Origin: Escherichia coli
GTDB lineage: Bacteria; Pseudomonadota; Gammaproteobacteria; Enterobacterales; Enterobacteriaceae
Assembly (NCBI RefSeq): GCF_030013595.1
Contig: NZ_CP122768.1
Reading direction: 5' to 3' (one strand)
Length of the DNA: 64,000 nucleotides
In this document: one piece after another, positions 4,220 to 16,887 of the stretch
How the letters are laid out: every line of letters starts with the position of its first letter
How positions within the stretch are numbered: the stretch's first letter is position 1
Position numbers and translations under genes: made by a program
The notes under the pieces: model-generated
What the model was told of the DNA's origin: nothing
Database searches by the model: none
Seen by the model: only the letters and a program-made list of their open reading frames with translations

Positions 4220-4940
4220 GAATCAGAGTCTCGATTAGTTTGTCTGCTTCAATCCCAGATGCAGAAGCATTAAAGATTTTGAGATGAAGACCGGTCAATT
4301 TTTTCTCGGCGAGTGCTTCCTTTACATAAATATCAAGCGGCTTTAGTGAGCTTTCCTTAACAGGAACCTTTACAAATGGAAGCTTTATAAAAATTCTCGC
4401 CGCGACGCTATATAATGTAGGCGATAGTGGTTGATCTCGATATTCTGCAAACATCCTATCATCGACAACAATCGCTGAAACGCTTTCGAAGTTGTGCCCT
4501 TCTAACAACCTAAGCTCTTCCTCGCTGTAATAAAGAAAATATTTTTTAAAATAATATGGATTCTCTTCAATTCCAAACACCTTACTCTCAATTCCATTAA
4601 AATCAACTCGGTGCCTTAATTTATGCAAAATAATCAGATCGGTATTTTTATCGAAAGCAGGATCAGATTTGAATGTTTCAGGAGCATACAGTAACACTAA
4701 TTTATTCAGCACCTGCGGTGATGGTATATTTTCACACTCAACCACAGCGAGGAATCGCTTCCTATCTCCACTATCCTGACTAAAATAAGTCAAAGACTTA
4801 TAATCAACACCTTCAAGACCAGCTAAAGTTTCTCCTGCCGAATACTCTATGGTGACGTCATCTGCTTTAGAATAGTCGCCTGTATTAAACAAAGTAAACT
4901 CATGTTTCAAGGCAGCCTGTAGAACAATATCTTTAATCAT
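4185..4940 (-). CDS. Middle component (251 aa) of the three-gene ATPase operon; candidate LmuC/kleisin-like protein
   Basis: ORF track; overlaps the upstream gene by 8 nt and the downstream gene by 35 nt (translational coupling); AT-rich; no motif recognised by eye. Confidence 0.75.
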   Translation of the reverse strand: MIKDIVLQAALKHEFTLFNTGDYSKADDVTIEYSAGETLAGLEGVDYKSLTYFSQDSGDRKRFLAVVECENIPSPQVLNKLVLLYAPETFKSDPAFDKNTDLIILHKLRHRVDFNGIESKVFGIEENPYYFKKYFLYYSEEELRLLEGHNFESVSAIVVDDRMFAEYRDQPLSPTLYSVAARIFIKLPFVKVPVKESSLKPLDIYVKEALAEKKLTGLHLKIFNASASGIEADKLIETLIHEEMENIQPQD

Positions 4941-6195
4941 TCAACTTCACCCTCGCCTCTTCCTTTGAAATTATTTTTGCATCAAAGGCTTTAGTTATTT
5001 TGTTACGATCCTTACCCATCAATGAAAACTCATCTTCTACAGCATCCCGCGAAGCTCCGGTAGCTGCACAAAATCGCTCAGCGGGTGAAAAAATATTTGC
5101 TCTAGCTGCGATTAGCCATTGATATTCAACTAAGATATCTATCAGCTCTGGATCGCTTTTCAGCTGCTCTATTAGATCTTCAGCAAACCTATGCTCCCGT
5201 CGAGCATTGTCTGCCGAAATTGCTGTTGGCAAATAAAAATCTCCGGCAGAGCACCTATAGTAAGGAGGCTTTTGCTCACTCAGTGGCGCTTTATCTATAT
5301 CGTAGATCACATCCACATAATCATAAACACTGTTCTCACTCACGACCATTGTGGAAGATCCAAAACATAACGACTTCCACAACCATATAAATGGAGTATC
5401 ACCCAACTCTTTAATCTGATCGTAAACATTTGCAACTTTTTGAATAACAGTTCTATCTGCTGTTTTTTCCATTGTATTGGTATACCCATACAATGATTTA
5501 CAAACGGCCATCCTGGCTTGGAACATTTTGTATACAATGTCGTCTTCATGGGTAGCGGTGAGGCTTAATAACTCTACAATCTTCTCACTTTTTAAAGTTT
5601 GAGTAAACGCGGCTTGTGCGGCGCTCATTAACCCATCCTGATTGCACGCGTGTATATATATTACTTGAGCGGCAATATGACTCTGCAAAGCCTCGAACTT
5701 CAAATTCACTAAAAAATCACTGCAAGGTAACTCTTCGGAAACCAGGTACTTCTCAATTTTTGATTTCGTTTTTTCTTCAACATCTTGGAGATAGCAGTAA
5801 GGCAGTCCATCGTAAGTATAAAATTTAACGACATTCCCATTGCTGCCAACAAAATCAGAAGCATCATCAAGGCGCGCAGATGTATGAAAATATCTTTTGG
5901 TAGTCTTATCACACAACATATATGTAGATGCAGCTTTTTCGAGAGCCTCCCTATAGGCAGCTCTTTTATCATCTGCTAGCGCTTTTACCTGATGCGTAGA
6001 AACTGCAACTCCATTTTCAATTATCGAAAAATCATCAATGCTGTCGATTTGCAACTCAAACGACATTTTATTGAGCACACATTCTATGGAATGATAAAGC
6101 GCTAAATGCCCTTGATAAATAAACCCACTCCATGTAGGTGCAGCTGTATGAGGATGGGAGGAAGCCGATTTCGACATGCAATATGTCCTAGGCAA
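4933..6195 (-). CDS. Putative effector (420 aa) of the three-gene operon; candidate LmuA-like protein with possible N-terminal PD-(D/E)xK-type nuclease fold
   Basis: First gene of the minus-strand operon. N-terminal segment GFIYQGHLALYH...IDSIDDFSIIENGVAVSTHQVK contains a D...D...(E/Q)xK-like arrangement; assignment is by eye only. Alternative start at M7 (position 6177). Confidence 0.75.
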   Translation of the reverse strand: MPRTYCMSKSASSHPHTAAPTWSGFIYQGHLALYHSIECVLNKMSFELQIDSIDDFSIIENGVAVSTHQVKALADDKRAAYREALEKAASTYMLCDKTTKRYFHTSARLDDASDFVGSNGNVVKFYTYDGLPYCYLQDVEEKTKSKIEKYLVSEELPCSDFLVNLKFEALQSHIAAQVIYIHACNQDGLMSAAQAAFTQTLKSEKIVELLSLTATHEDDIVYKMFQARMAVCKSLYGYTNTMEKTADRTVIQKVANVYDQIKELGDTPFIWLWKSLCFGSSTMVVSENSVYDYVDVIYDIDKAPLSEQKPPYYRCSAGDFYLPTAISADNARREHRFAEDLIEQLKSDPELIDILVEYQWLIAARANIFSPAERFCAATGASRDAVEDEFSLMGKDRNKITKAFDAKIISKEEARVKLND

Positions 6196-6524
6196 ATTTA
6201 GAGACAGAGTCAGAAGTAACCTTCTAACTCAGTAGAATATGATCTTAATTTCTGTATCCGATGTTTATATTTTTTGTTGAACGCGCCCAGCGGCGTTATG
6301 AAAACTTCCTTGATTGTCATTTTTATGCATTCTCTTGATCGATAGGAATTTAAATCCCAAAAAGATTAAAAAAACACCCAAAAACGGATGTTTATTCGAC
6401 ACTGCCTGCGTGCCATGAGTGCACCGCCATCAATTAAATGGATCTTATCGAGTGATACTGTATATCACTGATGGTTTTTTACTCCATTCCCCTGAAAATG
6501 GACGCAACTTCCCCGATGCGGCTC

Positions 6525-7712
6525 TCAGCCGCACACCCGCTGTTGCGCCAGTGGCTCATGCATCAGGACCAGCTCTGTCAGACGGTAGCCCCGCTTCAGC
6601 CCCGTAAAACGCATCTGACATCCGCACAGGATGCACTTTAGCGGGTCAACCTTCAGTAACCGCTGATACATCCCTCTCCACCTGATTTGCATCGCCGTCT
6701 TTCTCACCGTCTCCGTTATGACGTACACAACATCTTCCAGTAACCGGCGCTTTACCGGACTCAGGAAACCGTAGTACCTCACCATACGGAACCCCTTATC
6801 CGCCACATGCCAGGAGAACCTTTCCATAAACTCATCACCACTCATCACCAGGTATTCTTCCCGTTTTGTCCGGTGACTGTTGTAACGCAGACCAATTTCA
6901 TCCTGACCAGCATAGTGCTCCAGACGGCTCATCGGCACCGGCGGTTTTTTCAGGTAAGAGCCGAAGTACACCGCCACATGTGTGGCGTTATCCATCACCC
7001 GGGATACGTTGACATTCCAGCCCCGCCGGTAATGACTGTCCAGGAAGCGATTCCAGTCCCGTCTGCTGCTTCCTTCAACTGCCAGCGCATCCGGTATCAC
7101 CAGCTCCGGGTATTTTCGTGACAGTAACCACGTTATCCTGTAACGCCACATGCTCATCACCTTACGGGCGTAAAAATGAAGGTTTTTCCAGGTGTGGTCT
7201 GGTGTCACGCCGCCGGCCGTTGTCGACAGGTGAATGTGCGGATGCCACTGCTGGTCACGTCCCCATGTGTGGATGACCGTGAATATCCCCGGCACCACAT
7301 CTGCCTGGCGGCAGATTTCCTGTATCACATCCGCAGCAATGCGGCTCATCTCTGCCAGTAACCACCGGTTGTGGAACACCAGGGACCAGTACTGGCAGGG
7401 AAGTGTGAACACAATATGCTGCCACGGACAGTCGGGAACCAGACTCAGCAGATACTGTATCCACTGTGCGCCAGCCTTCACTCCGCAGTGCGGGCAGGAG
7501 CGACTTTTACACCGGAAGCAGACCTTTTTTGTGTGGCAACAGTCCGGAGATGAACAGCACCACTGTGTGTACCCCATCAGCGTGGTTCCGCACGCCATGA
7601 TTTTTGTCACCGACTCAATGACTACCGGACGCACTGAACCTTCCGGTTGTTTCTCCAGCCAGTTAAGCCAGCGGTTTCCCTGCTGAAAAATGTCGGCAAA
7701 ACGGGGAAGCAT
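6525..7712 (-). CDS. tnpA: IS91-family transposase TnpA
   Basis: N-terminal Cys-rich zinc-binding region (CCSSPDCCH...CFRCKSRSCPHCG), HUH motif HPHIH, conserved Tyr-containing C-terminal region. Likely start at MLPRF (7712), sharing one nucleotide with the orf121 stop; ORF track extends to 7757. Confidence 0.85.
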   Translation of the reverse strand: MLPRFADIFQQGNRWLNWLEKQPEGSVRPVVIESVTKIMACGTTLMGYTQWCCSSPDCCHTKKVCFRCKSRSCPHCGVKAGAQWIQYLLSLVPDCPWQHIVFTLPCQYWSLVFHNRWLLAEMSRIAADVIQEICRQADVVPGIFTVIHTWGRDQQWHPHIHLSTTAGGVTPDHTWKNLHFYARKVMSMWRYRITWLLSRKYPELVIPDALAVEGSSRRDWNRFLDSHYRRGWNVNVSRVMDNATHVAVYFGSYLKKPPVPMSRLEHYAGQDEIGLRYNSHRTKREEYLVMSGDEFMERFSWHVADKGFRMVRYYGFLSPVKRRLLEDVVYVITETVRKTAMQIRWRGMYQRLLKVDPLKCILCGCQMRFTGLKRGYRLTELVLMHEPLAQQRVCG

Positions 7713-8077
7713 CAGAAGGGCGGGGGGACTCCGTCCGGCCAGTGAACCGTGCCACACTCCGGGCAGTACATGCCGCCGGCGCTGATACCGGCAAGAATGG
7801 TCGCAAACTCCCGCTCCGTGCAGCGGGCTATTTCAGGATACCCTTCGTCATCGACACGAACAAACCAGAAGACCAGCTTTTTGTTTCCGGCATCCACAAA
7901 GAAGGGAATATTCAGGTCTGCGCAGCACTCAACGGCATCGTCAAAATTATCAAAGCGCAGAGCTTCTGCGTCTTCTTCGTCAAAGAAGTCATCGTCGTGA
8001 AGCTTCACGACATAGCGGGGAAGTTTGCTTCTTTGAGGGGCAGGTTTTCGTTTACGGGGTTTAGCTGAACGGGACAT
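7712..8077 (-). CDS. IS91 accessory ORF (ORF121-like, 121 aa)
   Basis: 121-aa ORF immediately upstream of and overlapping tnpA, as in IS91. Confidence 0.65.
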   Translation of the reverse strand: MSRSAKPRKRKPAPQRSKLPRYVVKLHDDDFFDEEDAEALRFDNFDDAVECCADLNIPFFVDAGNKKLVFWFVRVDDEGYPEIARCTEREFATILAGISAGGMYCPECGTVHWPDGVPPPF

Positions 8078-8964: not shown

Positions 8965-9864
8965 TTATCGCCCCGTAGTGGATATCAGAAAATCAATCAG
9001 GGCCTTCACTCTTTTCGTTTTACCCGCGTTTTTGGGGTAATAGAGATACACTGGCGGGTAGGTTTTCCAGTAGCTCTCCATCACCGGAATAAAGCGCTCC
9101 CTGTCCGGCTGTAACTGCCAGACAGGCTCAAACAAGCGCCCAATTCCCAGCCCGTTACGGATCCCGTCTGCCATAACGTCAATATCGTTGCTGATTAACT
9201 GCCCCGGCATCTCAACGGTCAACTGCTCACCGCGATCGTTCAGGAGCAGCGGAAGGATGCGGTTGTTGGTGATAAAACGGTAACCAATCAGCTGGTGATG
9301 ACAGAGATCTGCCGGCACTTCAGGCGTTCCATGTCGGGAGAGATACGCTGAGGATGCATATAATCCTTCACGAAACGGTTTCATTAACGGTCGGGCCACC
9401 ACCCCTCCCTCAAGAATATCGCCAAAACGGATCCCCAGATCAAAACGCTCTTTGATGATATTCACGGTACCGTCGTAGACCGAAATTTCTAACTGTATAC
9501 CCGGATATTGCTGACAGAATTCTGCCATCGCAGGCTTAAGAATTAACAGGTAGGCAAAACGCGAGAGCGTAATTCGCACCATCCCAGAGGGCTCCTGATG
9601 CTGGTCGCGAATGCTTTCAAGCGAGTTTTCCAGCGACTCCACCGCCGCAGCGGTCTGTTCCAGCAATAATTGACCGGTTTCCGTCAGCTCTATACGGCGG
9701 GTCGTACGCACAAAAAGCGGATGGCCGATATACTCTTCCAGCAGCTTTAGTGCATTGCTGACGGAGGGAGGCGTAATTTCCAGTTTCCTTGCGGCTGCCG
9801 AAATATTGCCCTCCCGCGCAATGCTCTGGAAGATGCGAATCTGGTTATAAAGAGCGTTATTCAT
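8965..9864 (-). CDS. LysR-family transcriptional regulator
   Basis: 299 aa; N-terminal HTH (ISAAARKLEITPPSVSNALKLLEE) and LysR substrate-binding domain; divergent from the downstream oxidoreductase operon. Confidence 0.9.
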   Translation of the reverse strand: MNNALYNQIRIFQSIAREGNISAAARKLEITPPSVSNALKLLEEYIGHPLFVRTTRRIELTETGQLLLEQTAAAVESLENSLESIRDQHQEPSGMVRITLSRFAYLLILKPAMAEFCQQYPGIQLEISVYDGTVNIIKERFDLGIRFGDILEGGVVARPLMKPFREGLYASSAYLSRHGTPEVPADLCHHQLIGYRFITNNRILPLLLNDRGEQLTVEMPGQLISNDIDVMADGIRNGLGIGRLFEPVWQLQPDRERFIPVMESYWKTYPPVYLYYPKNAGKTKRVKALIDFLISTTGR

Positions 9865-10000
9865 AATGTTTTCCTAAAGCAATTCTCGCCTGATTATTAA
9901 GTACAGTCTAAAAATGCTTAAGTCAATGACCCTCTAATCTTCCTGAAATACGCCTCTTATACTTTAGTCTCTTTCTACTACGACCTGAGTTCAGGAGACT

Positions 10001-10312
10001 ATGATGCGAATTTTATGTCTGGATATCCCTGCCCCTGGAGCATCGCTGGAGAAATATGCTCCGCACCTCAACGCTGAAGCGCTGCACGCCTGGGGATTGT
10101 ATAAATCAGGCTTCATCCGCGACATCTACTTCCGTCAGGACAGACCTGGCGTCGCTATTTTTCTTGAATGTGACTCTGTCGATGAAGCGATGAACGTTAT
10201 GGCCGAATTCCCGTTGGCAAAAGCAGGCTTACTAAGCTTCGAGTGTATACCGCTTGGCTCCTTTATTAACTGGGAAAATCTCTTCGCCGATGAATTTAAA
10301 AATAAAGAGTGA
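10001..10312 (+). CDS. Small alpha+beta-barrel protein (YciI/muconolactone isomerase/Dabb-like), 103 aa
   Basis: ORF track; size and operon position; product assignment is tentative. Stop overlaps the next gene start (ATGA-type). Confidence 0.55.
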   Translation: MMRILCLDIPAPGASLEKYAPHLNAEALHAWGLYKSGFIRDIYFRQDRPGVAIFLECDSVDEAMNVMAEFPLAKAGLLSFECIPLGSFINWENLFADEFKNKE

Positions 10313-11010
10313 GGACCGATATGAAACCTGCATATAAACCAGTGCTATGTGTCGTTTCCAGCCATCCGATTAAAGGCGCATCCGGTGTACCAACCGGTTT
10401 TTTCCTGGCCGAGCTGACTCATCCGCTGAAAGTACTGGAAGATGCCGGAATAAAAACAACAATAGCCAGTATTCGCGGGGGGCAGCCACCGGTGGATGGA
10501 TTTGACCTCAGCGACCCTGTTAACGCCTGGTACTGGAACGAAACCGATTTTCAGCAGCGCCTGGCAACAACACCTGCGTTATCCGAGCTGAAAGGTGCCG
10601 ATTACAGCGCAGTTTTCTTTGCAGGTGGTCATGGGACCATGTGGGATTTCCGTGATAATCAGGATGCCCAGCGTATTATCCGCGAAGTGTATGAAAGTGA
10701 TGGGATTGTCTCAGCCGTCTGCCACGGGCCTGCGGCATTGGTTGACGCAAAACTCAGTAGCGGCGAATACCTGATAAAAGGGAAAAATGTGGCGGCCTTT
10801 ACCAACAAGGAAGAGGAAGAAGTTCACACAACAGATGTGGTTCCCTTCCTGCTTGAAACCGCACTTCGCGAGCATGGTGCGCTTTATCATGAAGCTCCAA
10901 ACTGGTCTGAAAACGTGGTTACCGACGATCGCCTTATCACGGGGCAGAATCCCGCTTCAGCACATGGGGTTGGTGTGGCGCTGTTAAATGCACTCCGCCG
11001 GACAGCTTAA
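10309..11010 (+). CDS. DJ-1/PfpI (ThiJ) family type-1 glutamine amidotransferase-like protein
   Basis: 233 aa; nucleophile-elbow-like AVCHGPAAL motif typical of DJ-1/PfpI proteins. Confidence 0.75.
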   Translation: MRTDMKPAYKPVLCVVSSHPIKGASGVPTGFFLAELTHPLKVLEDAGIKTTIASIRGGQPPVDGFDLSDPVNAWYWNETDFQQRLATTPALSELKGADYSAVFFAGGHGTMWDFRDNQDAQRIIREVYESDGIVSAVCHGPAALVDAKLSSGEYLIKGKNVAAFTNKEEEEVHTTDVVPFLLETALREHGALYHEAPNWSENVVTDDRLITGQNPASAHGVGVALLNALRRTA

Positions 11011-11083
11011 TTAATTCATCGTTACTCACCTTACTTGGCCGGTTTAAGTCAGCCACGATCCGGCCTTTTTTCAGGAGCTGAAT

Positions 11084-12031
11084 ATGAAAACACTACCTCC
11101 AGTCGCACTAGGTACATGGTCCTGGAGCACAGGCTTTGCCGGCGGCGACACCGTCTTTGGTAATCATCTTTCTGATACTCAGATGGCAGAAGTGTTCACT
11201 GCGGCCATGAGTAAGGGCCTCAATCTCTGGGATACCGCAGCAGTATATGGTATGGGGAGTTCCGAGACTGTGCTGGGAGCATTAGTCCGTCAGTTTCCCC
11301 GCGAGAACATAATTTTATCCACCAAATTCACGCCGCAGATTGCGGACAAGCAGTCTGCGCAGCCTGTCAGCGATATGCTTGAGGCCAGCCTTGGGCGCCT
11401 GGGCGTGGACGCGATTGATATCTACTGGATCCATAATCCCCTCGACGTCGAAAAATGGACGCCAGGACTGATCCCACTTTTACAAAGCGGTAAGGTAAAA
11501 CGCGTAGGTGTTTCCAACCACAATCTGGCACAAATCAGACGCGCCAATGAAATCCTTAACGCTTCCGGTTATTCCCTCAGTGCAGTACAAAATCACTACA
11601 GCCTGCTCTATCGCGCTTCTGAAGAGGCCGGGATCCTTGATTATTGCCGACAAAATAACATCACGTTCTTTGCTTACATGGTCCTGGAGCAAGGCGCGCT
11701 CAGTGGTCGTTATGATTCAAATCATCCCATGCCTGCCGGGAGTGGCCGGGCCGAAAGTTATAACGCCGTACTGCCGCAGATAGAAAGACTAACCGCCGCC
11801 ATGAAAAAAATGGGAGCCGAAAGGAATGCCAGCGTGGCACAGATAGCCATCGCATGGGCTATTGCGAAAGGTACCCTTCCCCTCGTTGGTGCGACTAAAG
11901 TCCATCACGTTCTGGACGCCGCCTGCGCTTCAGACATCCAGTTACGCGATGAGGAAATCATCCTGCTGGAACAACTCGCCGCAGAGACCAGAGTGGATAC
12001 ACGAGGCGCCTGGGAAAAACCGATGGTGTAA
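11084..12031 (+). CDS. Aldo/keto reductase family oxidoreductase
   Basis: 315 aa; AKR-like sequence (LWDTAAVYGMGSSE..., ...GVSNHNLAQI...). Confidence 0.85.
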   Translation: MKTLPPVALGTWSWSTGFAGGDTVFGNHLSDTQMAEVFTAAMSKGLNLWDTAAVYGMGSSETVLGALVRQFPRENIILSTKFTPQIADKQSAQPVSDMLEASLGRLGVDAIDIYWIHNPLDVEKWTPGLIPLLQSGKVKRVGVSNHNLAQIRRANEILNASGYSLSAVQNHYSLLYRASEEAGILDYCRQNNITFFAYMVLEQGALSGRYDSNHPMPAGSGRAESYNAVLPQIERLTAAMKKMGAERNASVAQIAIAWAIAKGTLPLVGATKVHHVLDAACASDIQLRDEEIILLEQLAAETRVDTRGAWEKPMV

Positions 12032-12133
12032 AGCCCGTCCGGAACAGACTGTCATGAATGACACACACGAACGGGCTGTTCCGGGTGATTCTAATCTGTA
12101 TCACTTTTACTGCTTTGTATGAATGGTGAGAAT

Positions 12134-12812
12134 ATGAAAATCATTTGCCTCGAAGAAAATTATCTCGACAGCGAGTTAGGGCGAGCGTGTATGCCTGTTG
12201 CGCTTGAGCAGGCACCTTTCCTTGGCGACTGGGGGAAAACCGTCGCTGATGGTCATAATCCTGACCGACTCCCTGCTTTCCCGCTTTAATAAACTGAATG
12301 TGCCACTCTATCTTCATCCCGGGTTACCGCTTAAAAGCGTACAGCAGGCCTACTTCACGGGCTTCAGCGCAGAGGTCAACGCCAGGCTTTCTATGTTTGC
12401 CTGGGGCTGGCATCACGAAGCGGGGATCCATTTGTTGCGGCTGATGTTATCGGGTGCATTTGATAAATATCCCCACTTGCAGGTAATCAGTGGCCACTGG
12501 GGGGAGATGTTACCCTTCTGGCTCCAGCGTCTTGATGACAGCCTACCACTGGCTGCAACGGGTCTGTCACGCACGCTAACGAGAACCTTCCAGCAACACG
12601 TTTACGTTACCCCGTCAGGTATGCTGACACTGCCGCACTTCAAGTTTATCTACGCGTTAATGGGGGCTGAAAGGATCCTGTTCTCCGTCGATTATCCCTA
12701 TCAGACCCCTGGACGGTGTAAAAACCTTTATAGACAGTCTGCCCGTCAACAAGGCTGAAAAAGAGGCCATCGCGTTTCGCAATGCAGAACGTTTACTGGG
12801 CATCACGGTTTA
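12134..12812 (+). pseudogene. Disrupted amidohydrolase-2 family gene (frameshifted/truncated)
   Basis: Three consecutive frames carry pieces: MKIICLEENY... (12134-), the 186-aa ORF 12198-12758 (…ISGHWGEMLPFWLQRLDD…FSVDYPYQ…) and a C-terminal tail …KEAIAFRNAERLLGITV ending ~12812. No single intact ORF. Confidence 0.55.
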
Positions 12813-12963
12813 GTTCACCGTTTCATGATGACTGAGCACATTGTGATCAGCCGACAATTATTAGTTTTTGCCTAAAAGTGAATGAGCCTTTACTGCTCTA
12901 AAAAAATAATGTTGTCACTCTATACTGGATTTAATATTCACCAAAGATGTTTAACTGATTGAA

Positions 12964-13536
12964 ATGAAAAATATCCTTGTTATTTCAGGTCATCCTGAGC
13001 TTACCCATTCCGTCGCCAATGCCACTATTCTTGATGAAGTGGAGACCGCCCTTCCCGATGTTGAGATTCGTCGTCTGGACAGGCTCTATCCGGATGGCAA
13101 ATTCAACATCGCGGCGGAGCAGAAAAGCCTGCTCAGGGCCGATGTGATTGTCTGGCAGTTCCCTTTTTCCTGGTATGGGCTGCCAGGATTAATGAAAAAA
13201 TGGCTGGACGAGGTCTTTGTTCACGGCTTCGCGCATGGCTCAACGGCGAAACTGGGCGGTAAAAAGCTGATCCTCTCCTTTACAACGGGAGCGCCAGAGG
13301 AGCTCTATACCGTCGACAGTTTCTTTGGCCATACCATTGAAGAGTATCTTATTCCGTTCGAAACCACGGCAAGGCTGTGCAATCTTGAGCTGCTGGCGCC
13401 GGTTTATACCTGCGGTATCAGCTATGCCGACCGGGATGCCGACAAAATCGCGCAGCAAAAAACGCTTGCCCGGGAACACGCTTCAAGGCTTGTCGAACTG
13501 CTCAATTCCGTCGTGAATAATCCAGAGGGAGAATAA
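12964..13536 (+). CDS. Flavodoxin-like NAD(P)H dehydrogenase (quinone) family protein
   Basis: 190 aa; MKNILVISGHPE... N-terminus and size typical of NAD(P)H:quinone oxidoreductase / KefF-like proteins. Confidence 0.75.
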   Translation: MKNILVISGHPELTHSVANATILDEVETALPDVEIRRLDRLYPDGKFNIAAEQKSLLRADVIVWQFPFSWYGLPGLMKKWLDEVFVHGFAHGSTAKLGGKKLILSFTTGAPEELYTVDSFFGHTIEEYLIPFETTARLCNLELLAPVYTCGISYADRDADKIAQQKTLAREHASRLVELLNSVVNNPEGE

Positions 13537-13538
13537 CA

Positions 13539-14558
13539 ATGCAGTATACCCGGCTCGGTAAAAGTGACTTACTTGTTTCCCGCATCTGCATGGGATGCAT
13601 GGGGTTTGGCGATCCGTCGACGGGTCAGCATAGCTGGACGCTGGACGAAACAGCAAGCCGCGACATCATTCGCTATGGCCTTGAAAAGGGCATCAACTTT
13701 TACGATACCGCTATAGCCTACCAGAATGGCTCCAGTGAGCGATACGTTGGCCGGGCATTACGGGAGATGGCGAAACGCGATGATATCGTCCTGGCCACCA
13801 AGTTTCTGCCGCGAACCCCCGCACAAATTGCCGGAGGGATCAGCGGAAAAGAGGCAATCGCTCAATCCCTTGACCAGAGCCTGAAGAATCTGGGGATGGA
13901 CTATATCGACCTCTACATCTACCACATCTGGGATTACAACACGCCCATTATCGACGTGCTTGAAGCGTTACATACCGCTGTTACTGCTGGCAAAGTACGA
14001 GCTGTTGGTATTTCAAACTGCTATGCCTGGCAGCTGGCGAAGGCGAACGCCCTTGCTGAACGCGAAGGGCTGACGCCCTTTGTTTCCGTACAGAGCCACT
14101 ACAATCTAATTATGCGCGAAGATGAACGGGAGCTCTTCGGCCTGTGCACTGAGGATAATATCGCAATGACCCCCTATAGCGCGCTGGCCAGCGGCCGCCT
14201 CTCTCGTAAAGAAGGCTATACACGGCGAGCCACAGAGGATGACTATGCGCGTGGAAAATATGACAGCACGGCTGAACAGGATCGCAACATTATTGAGCGT
14301 GTAGCCGAACTGGCCGAACGTCATCTGGTGTCAATGACGGAAATATCTCTCGCTTGGCTGCTGACAAAAGTCACATCACCTGTCGTAGGGGCTACAAAAA
14401 AAGCTCATGTCGATGGCGCGGTAAACGCAGTAAATCTTCAACTAAGTCCGGAGGAAATTCAGTTTCTGGAAGAAACCTACCAGCCGCATGTTCTGACGGG
14501 GATCATGGCGCAAAATACGCCGCAAACGAAAGATGTTAAGCAGGTCTGGATGCGATAG
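13539..14558 (+). CDS. Aldo/keto reductase family oxidoreductase (Tas/YajO-like)
   Basis: 339 aa; AKR hallmarks (…INFYDTAIAYQNGSSE…, …GISNCYAWQ…). Confidence 0.85.
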   Translation: MQYTRLGKSDLLVSRICMGCMGFGDPSTGQHSWTLDETASRDIIRYGLEKGINFYDTAIAYQNGSSERYVGRALREMAKRDDIVLATKFLPRTPAQIAGGISGKEAIAQSLDQSLKNLGMDYIDLYIYHIWDYNTPIIDVLEALHTAVTAGKVRAVGISNCYAWQLAKANALAEREGLTPFVSVQSHYNLIMREDERELFGLCTEDNIAMTPYSALASGRLSRKEGYTRRATEDDYARGKYDSTAEQDRNIIERVAELAERHLVSMTEISLAWLLTKVTSPVVGATKKAHVDGAVNAVNLQLSPEEIQFLEETYQPHVLTGIMAQNTPQTKDVKQVWMR

Positions 14559-14673
14559 CCCTTATTCACTTTTCCTCCTCTCGTCTTTGAGAGCGCCAGT
14601 AGCGGTCGGTTACGTTCTTACCAGCACCAGTTGATCGAACGTCTTAAACAGTAATGTCAGTAAAAAGATCATC

Positions 14674-15399
14674 GTGAAAAAGACTTTTATGCTTTTAATT
14701 TGCATGCTAATAAGCAGCCCTGTCTTTGCAACAAAACCGGACGCGCCGAATAAGCCGGAGATGAATATCTTCGAGCTCGGCATCAGACCCGATCGGGACA
14801 ACGACTTTGCAGACGTGGCCAGACAGACGATTTCCGCTTCGGTTGATCATGAAGCTGGTACACTGGCGATGTATGCCCTGAAACGCAGCGACAATTCAGG
14901 TCAGGCATTCATGTTCGAACTCTATGAAAATGAGCGTGCTTATCGCAAACATCTCAATGCCGCCCCATACAAAGCATTCGCTGCTCGTGCACCTGACATT
15001 ATTGACAGGAAGAAGAAAATTACCCTGGAGCCACAGTTTCTGGGCGACAAACACATCATACCGAATGAACGAACTATCAATAATCTGGTGATCGTCGAAG
15101 TAAAGCCTGAATTTCAGAGCGAATTTAGAAACATCGTCCTTCCTGAAATGGTCGAGTCGCTCAAAGTAGAGAAAGGCGTGTTAGCCATGTATGCCGGTAC
15201 AGATTCAGAGACTCCAAAACGATGGTATTTCTATGAGATTTACGCCAGTGAGGAGGATTATCAACTGCACCGACAAACGCTGCACTTCCTGGATTACCTC
15301 AGGCAAACGGCGCATATGAGCGCCAGGAAGGACGCAATCCCGGTAAAACCGGTATTTCTTCGTAACAAAGGCGGAATCAAACAGGAGCCGCAACGTTGA
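14674..15399 (+). CDS. Secreted tandem ABM (antibiotic-biosynthesis-monooxygenase-like) domain protein
   Basis: 241 aa; N-terminal signal-peptide-like MKKTFMLLICMLISSPVFA; two repeats of similar length, each with an ...AMYAL/AMYAG...YE.Y...Y..H pattern. Confidence 0.65.
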   Translation: MKKTFMLLICMLISSPVFATKPDAPNKPEMNIFELGIRPDRDNDFADVARQTISASVDHEAGTLAMYALKRSDNSGQAFMFELYENERAYRKHLNAAPYKAFAARAPDIIDRKKKITLEPQFLGDKHIIPNERTINNLVIVEVKPEFQSEFRNIVLPEMVESLKVEKGVLAMYAGTDSETPKRWYFYEIYASEEDYQLHRQTLHFLDYLRQTAHMSARKDAIPVKPVFLRNKGGIKQEPQR

Positions 15400-15414
15400 C
15401 CAGTAAGGATTAAC

Positions 15415-16218
15415 ATGAAAAGCGTACTTGCAGCAGCGGCTATGTCGCTTGTTATTTCTGATTTTGCCAATGCTGAGGAAACAAGAGGTAAAGCTATGAT
15501 GAAAATAGAACCGTCAGCGATTTCGGAAGCTGATATTCGTTCCGTCTCACCGGCTCTCGCGCGCTTTGGTCGCGAAGCTATTACTGAAGATCTGTGGACA
15601 CGCGACGCCCTCTCACCGAGGGATCGTAGTGTGGTGACCGTCGCCATGCTGATTGCCCGCAACCAGCCTGCCGAGCTTAAGCACTATATTGACGTCGCTC
15701 TCGATAGCGGCGTGACGCCAGCGGAATTATCAGAAATCATTACCCATCTGGCGTTCTACTCAGGTTGGCCAAATGCAATGTCAGCCGTCAGCGTGACCAA
15801 AGCAGTATTTGAAACTCGTGGCGTCACGGCAGATGCACTTCCTGAAGCTTCTCCGGACCTGCTTCCTCTCAATCAGGAAGCAGAAAAGCAGCGTTCAGAG
15901 ACAGTGGAAAAAAATGTTGGCCCAATATCTCCAGGCCTGGTTAAATTCACTGCTGATCCACTCTTCCTGGATCTCTGGCAAAGACCCGCGCTGAAACCCC
16001 GCGACAGAAGCCTGATTACGGTCAGCGCCTTAATCGCATCCGGACAGAGCGCGCAGATTGGCTATCACCTCAATAGAGCAATGGATAATGGACTTTCTGT
16101 TGAGGAAGCTGGTGAGATCGTTACCCAGGCCGCCTTCTATGCTGGCTGGCCAAACGCATTTACCGCTGCTCCGGTTGTGGGAGAGGTGCTAAACAATCGA
16201 TCATCGAGTAAAAGGTAA
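15415..16218 (+). CDS. Tandem carboxymuconolactone-decarboxylase (CMD) family protein, possibly exported
   Basis: 267 aa; two repeats each with ...LW.R.ALSPRDRS..TVA.LIA... and ...HL.RA.D.G...E..E...H.AFY.GWPNA... motifs; hydrophobic N-terminus. Confidence 0.7.
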   Translation: MKSVLAAAAMSLVISDFANAEETRGKAMMKIEPSAISEADIRSVSPALARFGREAITEDLWTRDALSPRDRSVVTVAMLIARNQPAELKHYIDVALDSGVTPAELSEIITHLAFYSGWPNAMSAVSVTKAVFETRGVTADALPEASPDLLPLNQEAEKQRSETVEKNVGPISPGLVKFTADPLFLDLWQRPALKPRDRSLITVSALIASGQSAQIGYHLNRAMDNGLSVEEAGEIVTQAAFYAGWPNAFTAAPVVGEVLNNRSSSKR

Positions 16219-16632
16219 CATTACTGAACACTAAAACCTGACGCACATCACAAAATTAGAACGATCAGTTCATGAACCAACAGACGTGACATCGAGTGAT
16301 TTATGGACAGCGTTTAACACAGTTATGAACCAAAACTGAGTTCATAACTGTGAGTTTGAATCGTCATTTGATTAATATCCATTTAAAACAGTTTGTTATG
16401 CTGTTTCTGGTGCTGAAGTCAATTATGTATATCCCTCAAACCCAGAATAGTTAAATGGAATTTGAGTGATGCGAAGCGATTTTACGGTCGTCGTTATTAC
16501 TTCAGGGTTCCAGAACATAAAGCCTCTCCTCTTTCATGATTGGCCTGTGCATACCGGATATAGGCTGGCTGGTATGCAGGTTTGCCGTTTGCCGCATCTT
16601 CCCTGCGTTGAAGAGTCAGGCTGGCAAACCGC

Positions 16633-16887
16633 GTGCAAATGAACACCCCCTCTTTCCATCAACACTTCAGACAGCTTGCGGGAATGAGTCCACTCCGGTA
16701 TCAGAAATGGCTACGCCTCAATGAAGCCAGGCGACTGATGCTGAATGAACATTACGATGTCACCACTGCAGCCTATGCTGTCGGTTACGAAAGCTTATCC
16801 CATTTCAGTCGGGAATATTCGCGGATGTTTGGAGAGTCACCTAAGAGAGATATTGCCAGGTTAAGAAAGTCTGTCGGTCAGCTTTAA
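16633..16887 (+). pseudogene. yneL: AraC-family regulator remnant (C-terminal HTH only), yneL-like
   Basis: 84-aa ORF carrying only an AraC C-terminal HTH (…FHQHFRQLAGMSPLRYQKWLRLNEARRLML…LSHFSREYSRMFGESP…); no N-terminal domain upstream. Matches the position of the K-12 yneL remnant next to the yde fimbrial genes. Confidence 0.6.

Follow-up and report, generated by a model that had tools for sequence, protein, structure and literature searches.

ABM and CMD enzymes are usually regarded as cytoplasmic. In Escherichia coli the Flavodoxin_2 protein MdaB and the ABM protein YgiN reportedly take part in a quinone reductase/quinol monooxygenase cycle, as proposed by Adams & Jia in 2005 (J Biol Chem 280:8358), and PcaC and AhpD represent the characterised branches of the CMD family. 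Tandem architectures of both kinds are already known as crystal structures from structural genomics, PDB entries 3MCS (Fusobacterium nucleatum FN1347) and 3F44 (Lactobacillus acidophilus) for ABM and 4G9Q (Sinorhizobium meliloti) for CMD. Here we analyse a 64,000-nucleotide stretch of E. coli DNA (contig NZ_CP122768.1 of RefSeq assembly GCF_030013595.1; hereafter the window) in which two adjacent plus-strand genes encode a tandem ABM protein, ABM2 (14674..15399; GTG start, 241-residue precursor, ~222 residues when mature), and a tandem CMD protein, CMD2 (15415..16218; ATG start, 267-residue precursor, ~247 residues when mature), both opening with a predicted Sec signal peptide. Comparison of sequences across many genomes makes export of the two proteins very probable, and it is likely that the locus as a whole is best explained by exported Sec precursors belonging to a two-compartment module under a LysR regulator; a chemistry directed at quinones or phenolics is a more tentative suggestion.

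The likeness to MdaB and YgiN lies in the pairing of a gene for a Flavodoxin_2-fold NAD(P)H quinone reductase with one for a cofactor-free ABM-fold protein, as is found in the ABM2 cluster, and the annotation pipeline PGAP indeed names ABM2 a 'putative quinol monooxygenase'. However, YgiN is a cytoplasmic, single-domain homodimer of ~104 amino acids whereas ABM2 joins two domains in one chain behind a predicted signal peptide, lying within a much larger cluster that includes genes for aldo-keto reductases (AKR), Amidohydro_2, DJ-1 and CMD2 proteins, and its activity is putative. 3MCS and 3F44 are, like ABM2, single chains of two ABM domains, but they align from their residues 6-8, and hence have no leader, and are only ~26% identical to ABM2. 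4G9Q resembles CMD2 in its tandem CMD architecture, in the Sec-type leader of the native protein and in its LysR cluster with ABM and AKR genes; the two are ~50% identical as judged by eye, and 4G9Q carries the motif His in both domains whereas domain 2 of the E. coli protein has Gln. The name of 4G9Q, '4-carboxymuconolactone decarboxylase', was given by similarity only. With PcaC and AhpD, CMD2 shares the all-helical CMD fold and, in domain 1, a motif of the H-x-A-x-Y-x-G-x-P type, but it is duplicated, predicted to be exported, devoid of a CxxC and without pca or ahpC neighbours.

The duplications themselves are clear-cut. Searches with Pfam models place two stretches of each family, above the gathering score, in each open reading frame, PF03992 (ABM) in ABM2 (E 1.7e-25, 89.4 bits against a cut-off of 23.1) and PF02627 (CMD) in CMD2 (E 4.5e-37, 126.4 bits against a cut-off of 23), and the halves align with each other at 25% identity over 96 amino acids in ABM2 (E 9e-13) and at 43% over 98 amino acids in CMD2 (E 1e-31), bearing out the internal duplication of both proteins that a preliminary description of the locus had noted. 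An AlphaFold2 model of ABM2 has an overall predicted local distance difference test score (pLDDT) of 93.9 and superimposes in Foldseek on 3F44 and 3MCS with template modelling scores of 0.93-0.96, normalised by target length, and root mean square deviations of 1.3-1.6 Å; at the level of sequence ABM2 matches 3MCS at E 3e-26 and 3F44 at E 5e-19. The fold of CMD2 is settled by the sequence match to 4G9Q (E 2e-73, spanning residues 25-262). In CMD domain 1 the His (H111) of the I-T-H-L-A-x-Y-x-G-W-P motif is invariant, while at the motif position of domain 2 (residues 236-238, VTQ, 16120-16128) Gln replaces His in E. coli. The same Gln occurs in 57 of 105 enterobacterial CMD2 homologues and His is kept in 81 of 82 proteins of the 4G9Q type, so that domain 2 may, on this comparison, be relaxed or non-catalytic here.

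Database names suggest more familiar roles. By these, CMD2 would be a true PcaC, acting in the beta-ketoadipate pathway, and ABM2 would be an enzyme of antibiotic biosynthesis or of LsrG type. The names are of PcaC or YgiN type and the best NCBIfam matches are indeed the PcaC and LsrG models, but both proteins fall below the curated equivalog cut-offs, with CMD2 scoring 115.3 bits against 155.7 for TIGR02425 (PcaC) and ABM2 55.6 bits against 135 for NF007791 (LsrG, P-DPD isomerase). There are no pcaB/D/I/J/F genes, nor any other pca genes, among the neighbours, no lsr genes in the cluster and no polyketide genes nearby, and the beta-ketoadipate pathway is cytoplasmic with a single-domain PcaC; we regard these assignments as extremely improbable. 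An assignment of CMD2 as an AhpD-type alkylhydroperoxidase was likewise rejected, as there is no CxxC and not a single Cys in the mature protein.

In order to establish whether the N-termini are those of exported proteins we applied a heuristic of our own together with inspection by eye, the criteria being a basic n-region, a hydrophobic core of 7-15 or more residues and small, uncharged residues at positions -3 and -1. Both proteins show all of these features, as expected for Sec export and cleavage by signal peptidase I. The predicted signal peptide of ABM2 (14674..14730) is MKKTFMLLICMLISSPVFA, cleaved after A19 to leave a mature protein beginning TKPDAP, and that of CMD2 (15415..15474) is MKSVLAAAAMSLVISDFANA, cleaved after A20 at an A-x-A site ahead of EETRGK. 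The n-regions are basic (K2K3 in ABM2, K2 in CMD2), the hydrophobic cores of 16 and 13 residues, respectively, are free of charges, and the residues at -3 to -1 read V-F-A and A-N-A. In the AlphaFold2 models these segments lie outside of the folded domains, residues 1 to ~27 of ABM2 at pLDDT 56-67 and residues 1-28 of CMD2 at pLDDT < 50. The leader segment is missing altogether from Gram-positive homologues of ABM2 and from 3MCS and 3F44. The hydrophobic, signal-peptide-like N-termini described previously thus hold up, showing an n/h/c layout in both proteins that is conserved over divergent orthologues, and Sec cleavage is, judging from these features, very probable.

Other kinds of leader were considered. 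A twin-arginine translocation (Tat) signal was rejected for both E. coli proteins because neither contains the RR of the S/T-R-R-x-F-L-K motif. A lipoprotein signal was rejected for ABM2, where the 'LLIC' sequence has Ile at -1 and orthologues show G, W, F or Y in place of the Cys, and for CMD2, where there is no Cys to make up a lipobox (L-[AS]-[GA]-C). A lipobox, MSGC, is present in one CMD paralogue from Yersinia. It could also be that the segments are signal-anchors that stay uncleaved and hold ABM2 and CMD2 on the periplasmic side of the inner membrane, since cleavage is a prediction and the c-region of CMD2 holds an Asp (SDFANA). Yet neither hydrophobic core is long enough for a transmembrane helix, very divergent leaders retain small residues at -3 and -1 and in ABM2 a helix-breaking Ser-Pro precedes the cut site, and we consider tethering quite improbable next to cleavage and release.

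Much of the case for export comes from homologues. When 1.84 billion representative proteins were searched exhaustively, no more than 494 proved to be related to ABM2 at E <= 1e-3, and those of tandem length fall into two classes, the first of ~240-260 amino acids with highly diverse, leader-like N-terminal extensions and the second of ~215-225 amino acids beginning directly at the first beta-strand. We then took 80 genomic ABM2 loci from an alignment-based scan with one genome per species, comprising a proteobacterial set (Enterobacterales, Pasteurellaceae, Neisseriaceae, Xanthomonadales, Acinetobacter, Cardiobacterium, Lautropia) and a Gram-positive set (Streptococcus, Staphylococcus, Coriobacteriia, Faecalicoccus). 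Leaders were counted with a stricter version of the heuristic that is still crude, missing 6 leaders that are obvious by eye; a looser version, not used for counts, gave a false positive on the cytoplasmic reductase AKR2 of the window. The heuristic finds leaders in 47 of 55 proteobacterial copies versus 0 of 25 from Gram-positives (Fisher p = 4e-14), and among the 8 proteobacterial misses 6 have a leader by eye and 2 lack an upstream start codon, for a total by heuristic and by eye of ~53/55.

For CMD2, where each search returns at least 8000 relatives, the heuristic is positive for 100 of 118 proteins of the enterobacterial type among the matches listed. The 120 proteins most closely related to 4G9Q belong to alpha- and gammaproteobacteria, and almost all of them open with MK, a hydrophobic stretch and A-x-A followed by QQPN, and many of the shorter gene calls in this set begin within the leader; the native S. 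meliloti protein behind 4G9Q (P0391) begins MKRLFAPLIGVMMMTASNAGA, a Sec-type leader, ahead of QQPN. Throughout, the leader sequences vary freely, with the n/h/c layout and the small -3/-1 residues (VFA, AQA, ANA, AHA) retained. The expectation that periplasmic tandem versions would be unusual is therefore not borne out, as leaders are the norm in proteobacterial ABM2 and CMD2, and predicted export is the rule for both subfamilies in Proteobacteria and no oddity of this locus.

The argument requires that translation begin upstream of the hydrophobic segments, and here the gene models disagree. CMD2 is straightforward, with a TAAGGA Shine-Dalgarno sequence 6 nucleotides upstream of ATG 15415 and a concordant RefSeq call. 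ABM2, in contrast, is given in RefSeq (PGAP) as a protein of 231 amino acids from ATG 14704 (M11), which lies within the hydrophobic core, and in other records as one of 236 amino acids from ATG 14689 (M6), which also cuts the core. The GTG-AAA opening of ABM2 is found at the same position in Enterobacter, Pantoea, Pectobacterium, Rahnella, Raoultella, Yersinia, Serratia and Erwinia, preceded in each case, at a distance of a few codons, by an in-frame stop, and at the equivalent position the start is ATG in loci L012 and L007 and in Aeromonas. A Shine-Dalgarno sequence of AAGGA type precedes the start in relatives, AAAAGGA in L010 for example, and is weakened to AAAAAGA in E. coli. The M/V-K start and its Shine-Dalgarno sequence are kept from Enterobacterales to L007 (35% identity), while M6 and M11 are variable (V6 in P0115, L11 in P0030). 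Because the position of the start and its Shine-Dalgarno sequence are conserved and M6 and M11 are not, GTG 14674 is favoured as the ABM2 start and the RefSeq model is probably truncated.

That the true starts are nevertheless downstream (ATG 14689 or 14704 in ABM2, Met27 or Met28 in CMD2), making the proteins cytoplasmic, or in a weaker form that leader-bearing and leaderless isoforms are both produced, draws on the two shorter ABM2 models, on the E. coli GTG with its weak Shine-Dalgarno sequence, on several homologues called as 212-residue ABM2 or 240-residue CMD2 proteins and on Aeromonas, where a stop interrupts the CMD2 leader and the reading frame restarts at MMK. Against this, the Aeromonas call of a 211-residue ABM2 has an in-frame upstream ATG with a Shine-Dalgarno sequence and a full leader, a cytoplasmic ABM2 initiated at M11 would still carry half of the hydrophobic core, the M6 and M11 positions are replaced in orthologues as noted above, and ATG 15415 has the best Shine-Dalgarno sequence in CMD2. 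Downstream starts are, in our judgement, very improbable. The possibility that they lie below the hydrophobic segment, on which the preliminary description would have fallen, is thus answered by starts that lie upstream of it, with the RefSeq start of ABM2 contradicted by the comparative data.

ABM2 and CMD2 are the last two genes of a cluster on the plus strand. Divergent from it is a gene for a LysR-family regulator (8965..9864, minus strand; Pfam HTH_1 and LysR_substrate). The first gene of the cluster (10001..10312) encodes a conserved protein of 103 amino acids with no Pfam match at E <= 0.001 (YCII only at E 0.25), and its stop overlaps the GTG start of a DJ-1/PfpI gene (10309..11010; PF01965, E 3.5e-16); we refer to the former as 'hyp102', and the two, always together, also open the cluster in 16 other loci. 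There follow a first aldo-keto reductase of 315 amino acids, AKR1 (11084..12031; PF00248, E 6e-57), an Amidohydro_2 pseudogene of the ACMSD superfamily (~12134..12815, ends approximate), a Flavodoxin_2 gene of the 'ISGHP' type (12964..13536; NAD(P)H quinone-oxidoreductase-like, PF02525, E 4.7e-40) and a second aldo-keto reductase of 339 amino acids, AKR2 (13539..14558; PF00248, E 3e-70). The DJ-1, AKR1, Flavodoxin_2 and AKR2 proteins have no leader, and none of the cofactor-bearing enzymes of the cluster that survive in the E. coli window is leader-bearing. A scan of 9700-16700 for promoters and terminators returned none above shuffled expectation, a result with no bearing on operon structure.

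The spacer of 115 nucleotides between AKR2 and ABM2 holds a relic. Positions 14571-14654 (plus strand) encode, as found with tblastn, FPPLVFESASSGRLRSYQHQLIERLKQ and a stop, the last 27 codons of a second Flavodoxin_2 of the 'IVSHPYP' type, 89% identical in protein sequence to that of Rahnella rivi (L018; E 3.6e-14) and 89% identical over 112 nucleotides. A full gene of this type lies between AKR2 and ABM2 in Enterobacter sichuanensis (L015), R. rivi and Pantoea gossypiicola (L020), and its presence in three genera indicates that the ancestral enterobacterial cluster ended with three leader-bearing proteins, Flavodoxin_2, ABM2 and CMD2. The Amidohydro_2 pseudogene is also decayed, as tblastn with the intact L007 protein places it in three frames with an internal deletion of residues ~92-209 (~118 codons); an open reading frame fragment at 12198-12758 matches PF04909, and in L010 the gene is intact (344 amino acids).

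Given this decay one may ask whether ABM2 and CMD2 are simply the intact leftovers of an accessory cluster that is no longer of use in E. coli. The pseudogene, the reduction of the exported-type Flavodoxin_2 to 27 codons, more extensive truncation in strain CFSAN018748, the presence of the cluster in a minority of E. coli genomes (see below) and an ABM2 Shine-Dalgarno sequence weaker than in L010 and L012 all fit such a picture. On the other hand, the ABM2 and CMD2 reading frames are full length and 97-99% conserved over hundreds of E. coli records, and smaller versions of the module are apparently complete in other genera. We therefore hold it unlikely, if by some way the most serious of the alternatives, that the two are mere remnants.

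The neighbours of ABM2 in other genomes, assigned with phmmer seeds, show how general the arrangement is. In nearly all of the 80 loci ABM2 adjoins genes for Flavodoxin_2, YCII, AKR, Amidohydro_2, CMD, LysR, DJ-1 or 103-residue proteins; Flavodoxin_2 genes do so in most loci, and a divergent LysR gene adjoins the homologous cluster in most of the proteobacterial ones. The cluster recurs from Streptococcus to Sinorhizobium. In Gram-positive loci Amidohydro_2 is directly upstream of ABM2 in most cases and the CMD protein is single-domain and leaderless. Smaller units that appear complete occur elsewhere, such as LysR-Flavodoxin_2-CMD2 and LysR-Flavodoxin_2-YCII-AKR-ABM2. A CMD2 locus in Klebsiella consists of LysR, Flavodoxin_2, CMD2 and a cyclophilin-like protein, the last three of one operon and all leader-bearing; one in Pseudomonas consists of LysR, AKR and CMD2; and the Sinorhizobium locus of 4G9Q runs LysR, ABM, ABM, AKR, CMD2, DUF2255, AKR, GSDH, cupin. 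In one metagenomic protein of 381 amino acids (P0438, JGI metagenome 3300078620) a signal peptide, tandem CMD domains and an ABM domain are joined in a single chain. Its gene is surrounded by cupin, cyclophilin-like-2 and DUF2255/F420H2-quinone-reductase-like genes.

Partner proteins in these loci carry leaders of their own. Among Flavodoxin_2 proteins leaders are found in 9 of 13 of the 'IVSHPYP' type and in 1 of 31 of the 'ISGHP' type, the former often with twin-arginine motifs such as DRRTFVK (Chelonobacter), DRRKLL (Eikenella), TRREFI (Actinobacillus), SRREVI (Testudinibacter) and HRRTLL (L007). Amidohydro_2 has twin-arginine leaders in 6 of 13 proteobacterial proteins (SRRRIFL, NRRQFL, SRRHFL, NRRNFL) versus 0 of 21 from Gram-positives. 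In Sinorhizobium the AKR upstream of CMD2 has the motif NRRTLL, the cupin a Sec-type leader, and a single-domain ABM protein and the GSDH protein also have hydrophobic, leader-like N-termini. In Sinorhizobium medicae (L013, 4754-5926) the AKR directly upstream of the 4G9Q orthologue is a protein of 390 amino acids with the twin-arginine leader MTNRRTLLGAGLGLAAASLVSTTSASA; a Tat-exported AKR would be unusual. In Pseudomonas orientalis (L014, 5863-5982) an open reading frame of 39 codons just upstream of CMD2 encodes a Tat-like leader only, DRRNFLIAGSGVLLAATSFAFS, and is probably the remnant of a deleted exported gene.

Predicted leader type thus tracks cofactor content, with Sec signals on ABM and CMD proteins and Tat signals on the flavin-, metal- and nucleotide-binding partners. 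Sec for cofactor-free and Tat for cofactor-bearing proteins is the partition expected of real export. There is a precedent in the glucose-fructose oxidoreductase of Zymomonas, which is exported by Tat as a folded enzyme and functions in the periplasm with a tightly bound nucleotide cofactor; the Tat-type leaders of the Flavodoxin_2, AKR and Amidohydro_2 partners imply similar export, although the Zymomonas enzyme differs in fold and pathway. The predicted leaders of partners in relatives are the strongest independent support for a periplasmic role of ABM2 and CMD2, and that the two belong to a conserved two-compartment module is highly probable.

The picture that we propose is as follows. ABM2 and CMD2 would be made as Sec precursors and cut by signal peptidase I after VFA19 and ANA20, respectively, the mature proteins being soluble periplasmic enzymes, each a single-chain pseudo-dimer of its own fold. 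The module, putatively controlled by LysR, would run in the order 103-residue protein, DJ-1, AKR, Amidohydro_2, Flavodoxin_2, AKR, an exported Flavodoxin_2 (here a relic), ABM2 and CMD2. In Gram-negatives the cytoplasmic half would comprise the 'ISGHP'-type Flavodoxin_2, most of the AKRs and DJ-1, in the compartment where NAD(P)H, which they presumably use, is present, and the periplasmic half ABM2 and CMD2, delivered by Sec, along with the 'IVSHPYP'-type Flavodoxin_2, Amidohydro_2 and sometimes an AKR, delivered by Tat. Characterised ABM and CMD enzymes need no cofactor, which would suit a compartment devoid of NAD(P)H and ATP.

As to the chemistry, a redox-active aromatic compound (a quinone, quinol or phenolic acid) might be processed before or during entry into the cell. 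Amidohydrolases of the ACMSD type are decarboxylases, hydratases and lactonases of aromatic acids, and the presence of AKRs, DJ-1 and an ACMSD-type amidohydrolase in the cluster points to redox-active aromatic electrophiles. The enterobacterial carriers include Pantoea, Erwinia, Dickeya, Pectobacterium, Serratia, Rahnella, Enterobacter and Klebsiella, many of them plant-associated genera. Quinones and phenolics are, by analogy, a tentative choice of substrate class, to which we would give somewhat less than even weight. The broadest version of the proposal, a LysR-switched pathway spanning phyla and two compartments in which quinones or phenolics are processed in the periplasm by means of a flavin reductase independent of free NAD(P)H, is more doubtful still. 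The earlier suggestion that an exogenous compound is processed in the cell envelope gains from the conserved LysR cluster of reductases and hydrolases and from the Tat and Sec leaders on partners in relatives; its other part, that the purpose is detoxification, stays conjectural.

A number of observations weigh against the reading of ABM2 and CMD2 as working periplasmic enzymes in this strain. The E. coli ABM2 start is a GTG with a weakened Shine-Dalgarno sequence, so that expression may be low, and RefSeq calls a shorter protein. The conserved Met-Met immediately after the CMD2 leader could give rise to a leaderless isoform. A minority of homologues lack an intact leader, as with the stop codon in the CMD2 leader of Aeromonas caviae and the CMD2 proteins of Yersinia frederiksenii, Psittacicella and Enterobacter soli, which are called leaderless. 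The cluster is partly pseudogenised here (Amidohydro_2, Flavodoxin_2 relic), and more so in other E. coli, and the pathway may be non-functional in this strain. A periplasmic Flavodoxin_2 or AKR would be without free NAD(P)H, and the analogy with a quinone cycle leaves the electron donor unexplained. Finally, searches of the full-text literature turned up no localisation experiment or proteomic detection of ABM2 or CMD2, no substrate for any member of the cluster, no paper on 3MCS, 3F44 or 4G9Q and none on the function, export or cluster of these proteins. The matches examined are unrelated, being a cytoplasmic ABM protein in a Novosphingobium periplasm proteome, a CMD protein of CxxC type from the ECF41 regulon of S. 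meliloti and YgiN found contaminating an asparaginase drug.

The A. caviae case can be seen in detail at L004 8920-9003, where a degraded CMD2 leader, VKGVIIEAVMSFIANANETRG, is followed by a stop and then by a reading frame that restarts at the conserved Met-Met; this represents either a pseudogene or a leaderless variant that occurs naturally.

The window is an accessory region of E. coli in which the cluster is partly decayed and ABM2 and CMD2 are intact. A 2-kb stretch around the two genes is present in 505 of 5426 complete E. coli genomes (~9%), at 90-99.7% identity. Of 511 matching places in E. coli 8 are on plasmids, so that the cluster, or a part of it, is also plasmid-borne. In strain CFSAN018748 the cluster sits between hipBA and the yneL/ydeQRS fimbrial genes, with the DJ-1, AKR1 and amidohydrolase genes further truncated. 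The region upstream of the LysR gene that hipBA occupies in that strain corresponds in the window to 4933-7757, where we note two minus-strand genes. The product of the first (4933-6195), a candidate anti-phage effector, combines an N-terminus resembling Cap4 nucleases with the CTD1 domain of ABC-3C systems, and the second (6525-7757) encodes an IS91-family transposase (Y2_Tnp and Zn_Tnp_IS91). Downstream of CMD2, 16219-16630 is low in G+C (0.43) and has no long open reading frame, 16633-16887 holds a C-terminal fragment of an AraC-family protein, a yneL-like pseudogene, and from 17273 onward there is a chaperone-usher fimbrial operon (fimA-like, chaperone, usher, ydeS/R/Q).

The families, folds and tandem architectures are all on record already, and the leaders are probably picked up by automated pipelines. 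What appears to be new here is a conserved LysR module that is cytoplasmic in Gram-positives and split across the membrane in Gram-negatives, with a partition of its exported proteins between Sec and Tat according to cofactor content. The names under which the proteins are filed ('quinol monooxygenase YgiN', '4-carboxymuconolactone decarboxylase') and the RefSeq start of ABM2 mask their probable periplasmic location. For E. coli the stakes are modest, as this is an accessory and partly decayed island in ~9% of complete genomes. The cluster is, however, common in plant- and animal-associated Enterobacterales, Pasteurellaceae, Neisseriaceae, Xanthomonadales, rhizobia and streptococci, and characterisation of one member would bear on the annotation of thousands of genes. 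If export is borne out, the cluster would exemplify a route of small-molecule defence or catabolism with cofactor-free steps outside of the cytoplasmic membrane, and for the flavoprotein and amidohydrolase partners exported by Tat one would have to ask how electrons are supplied there.

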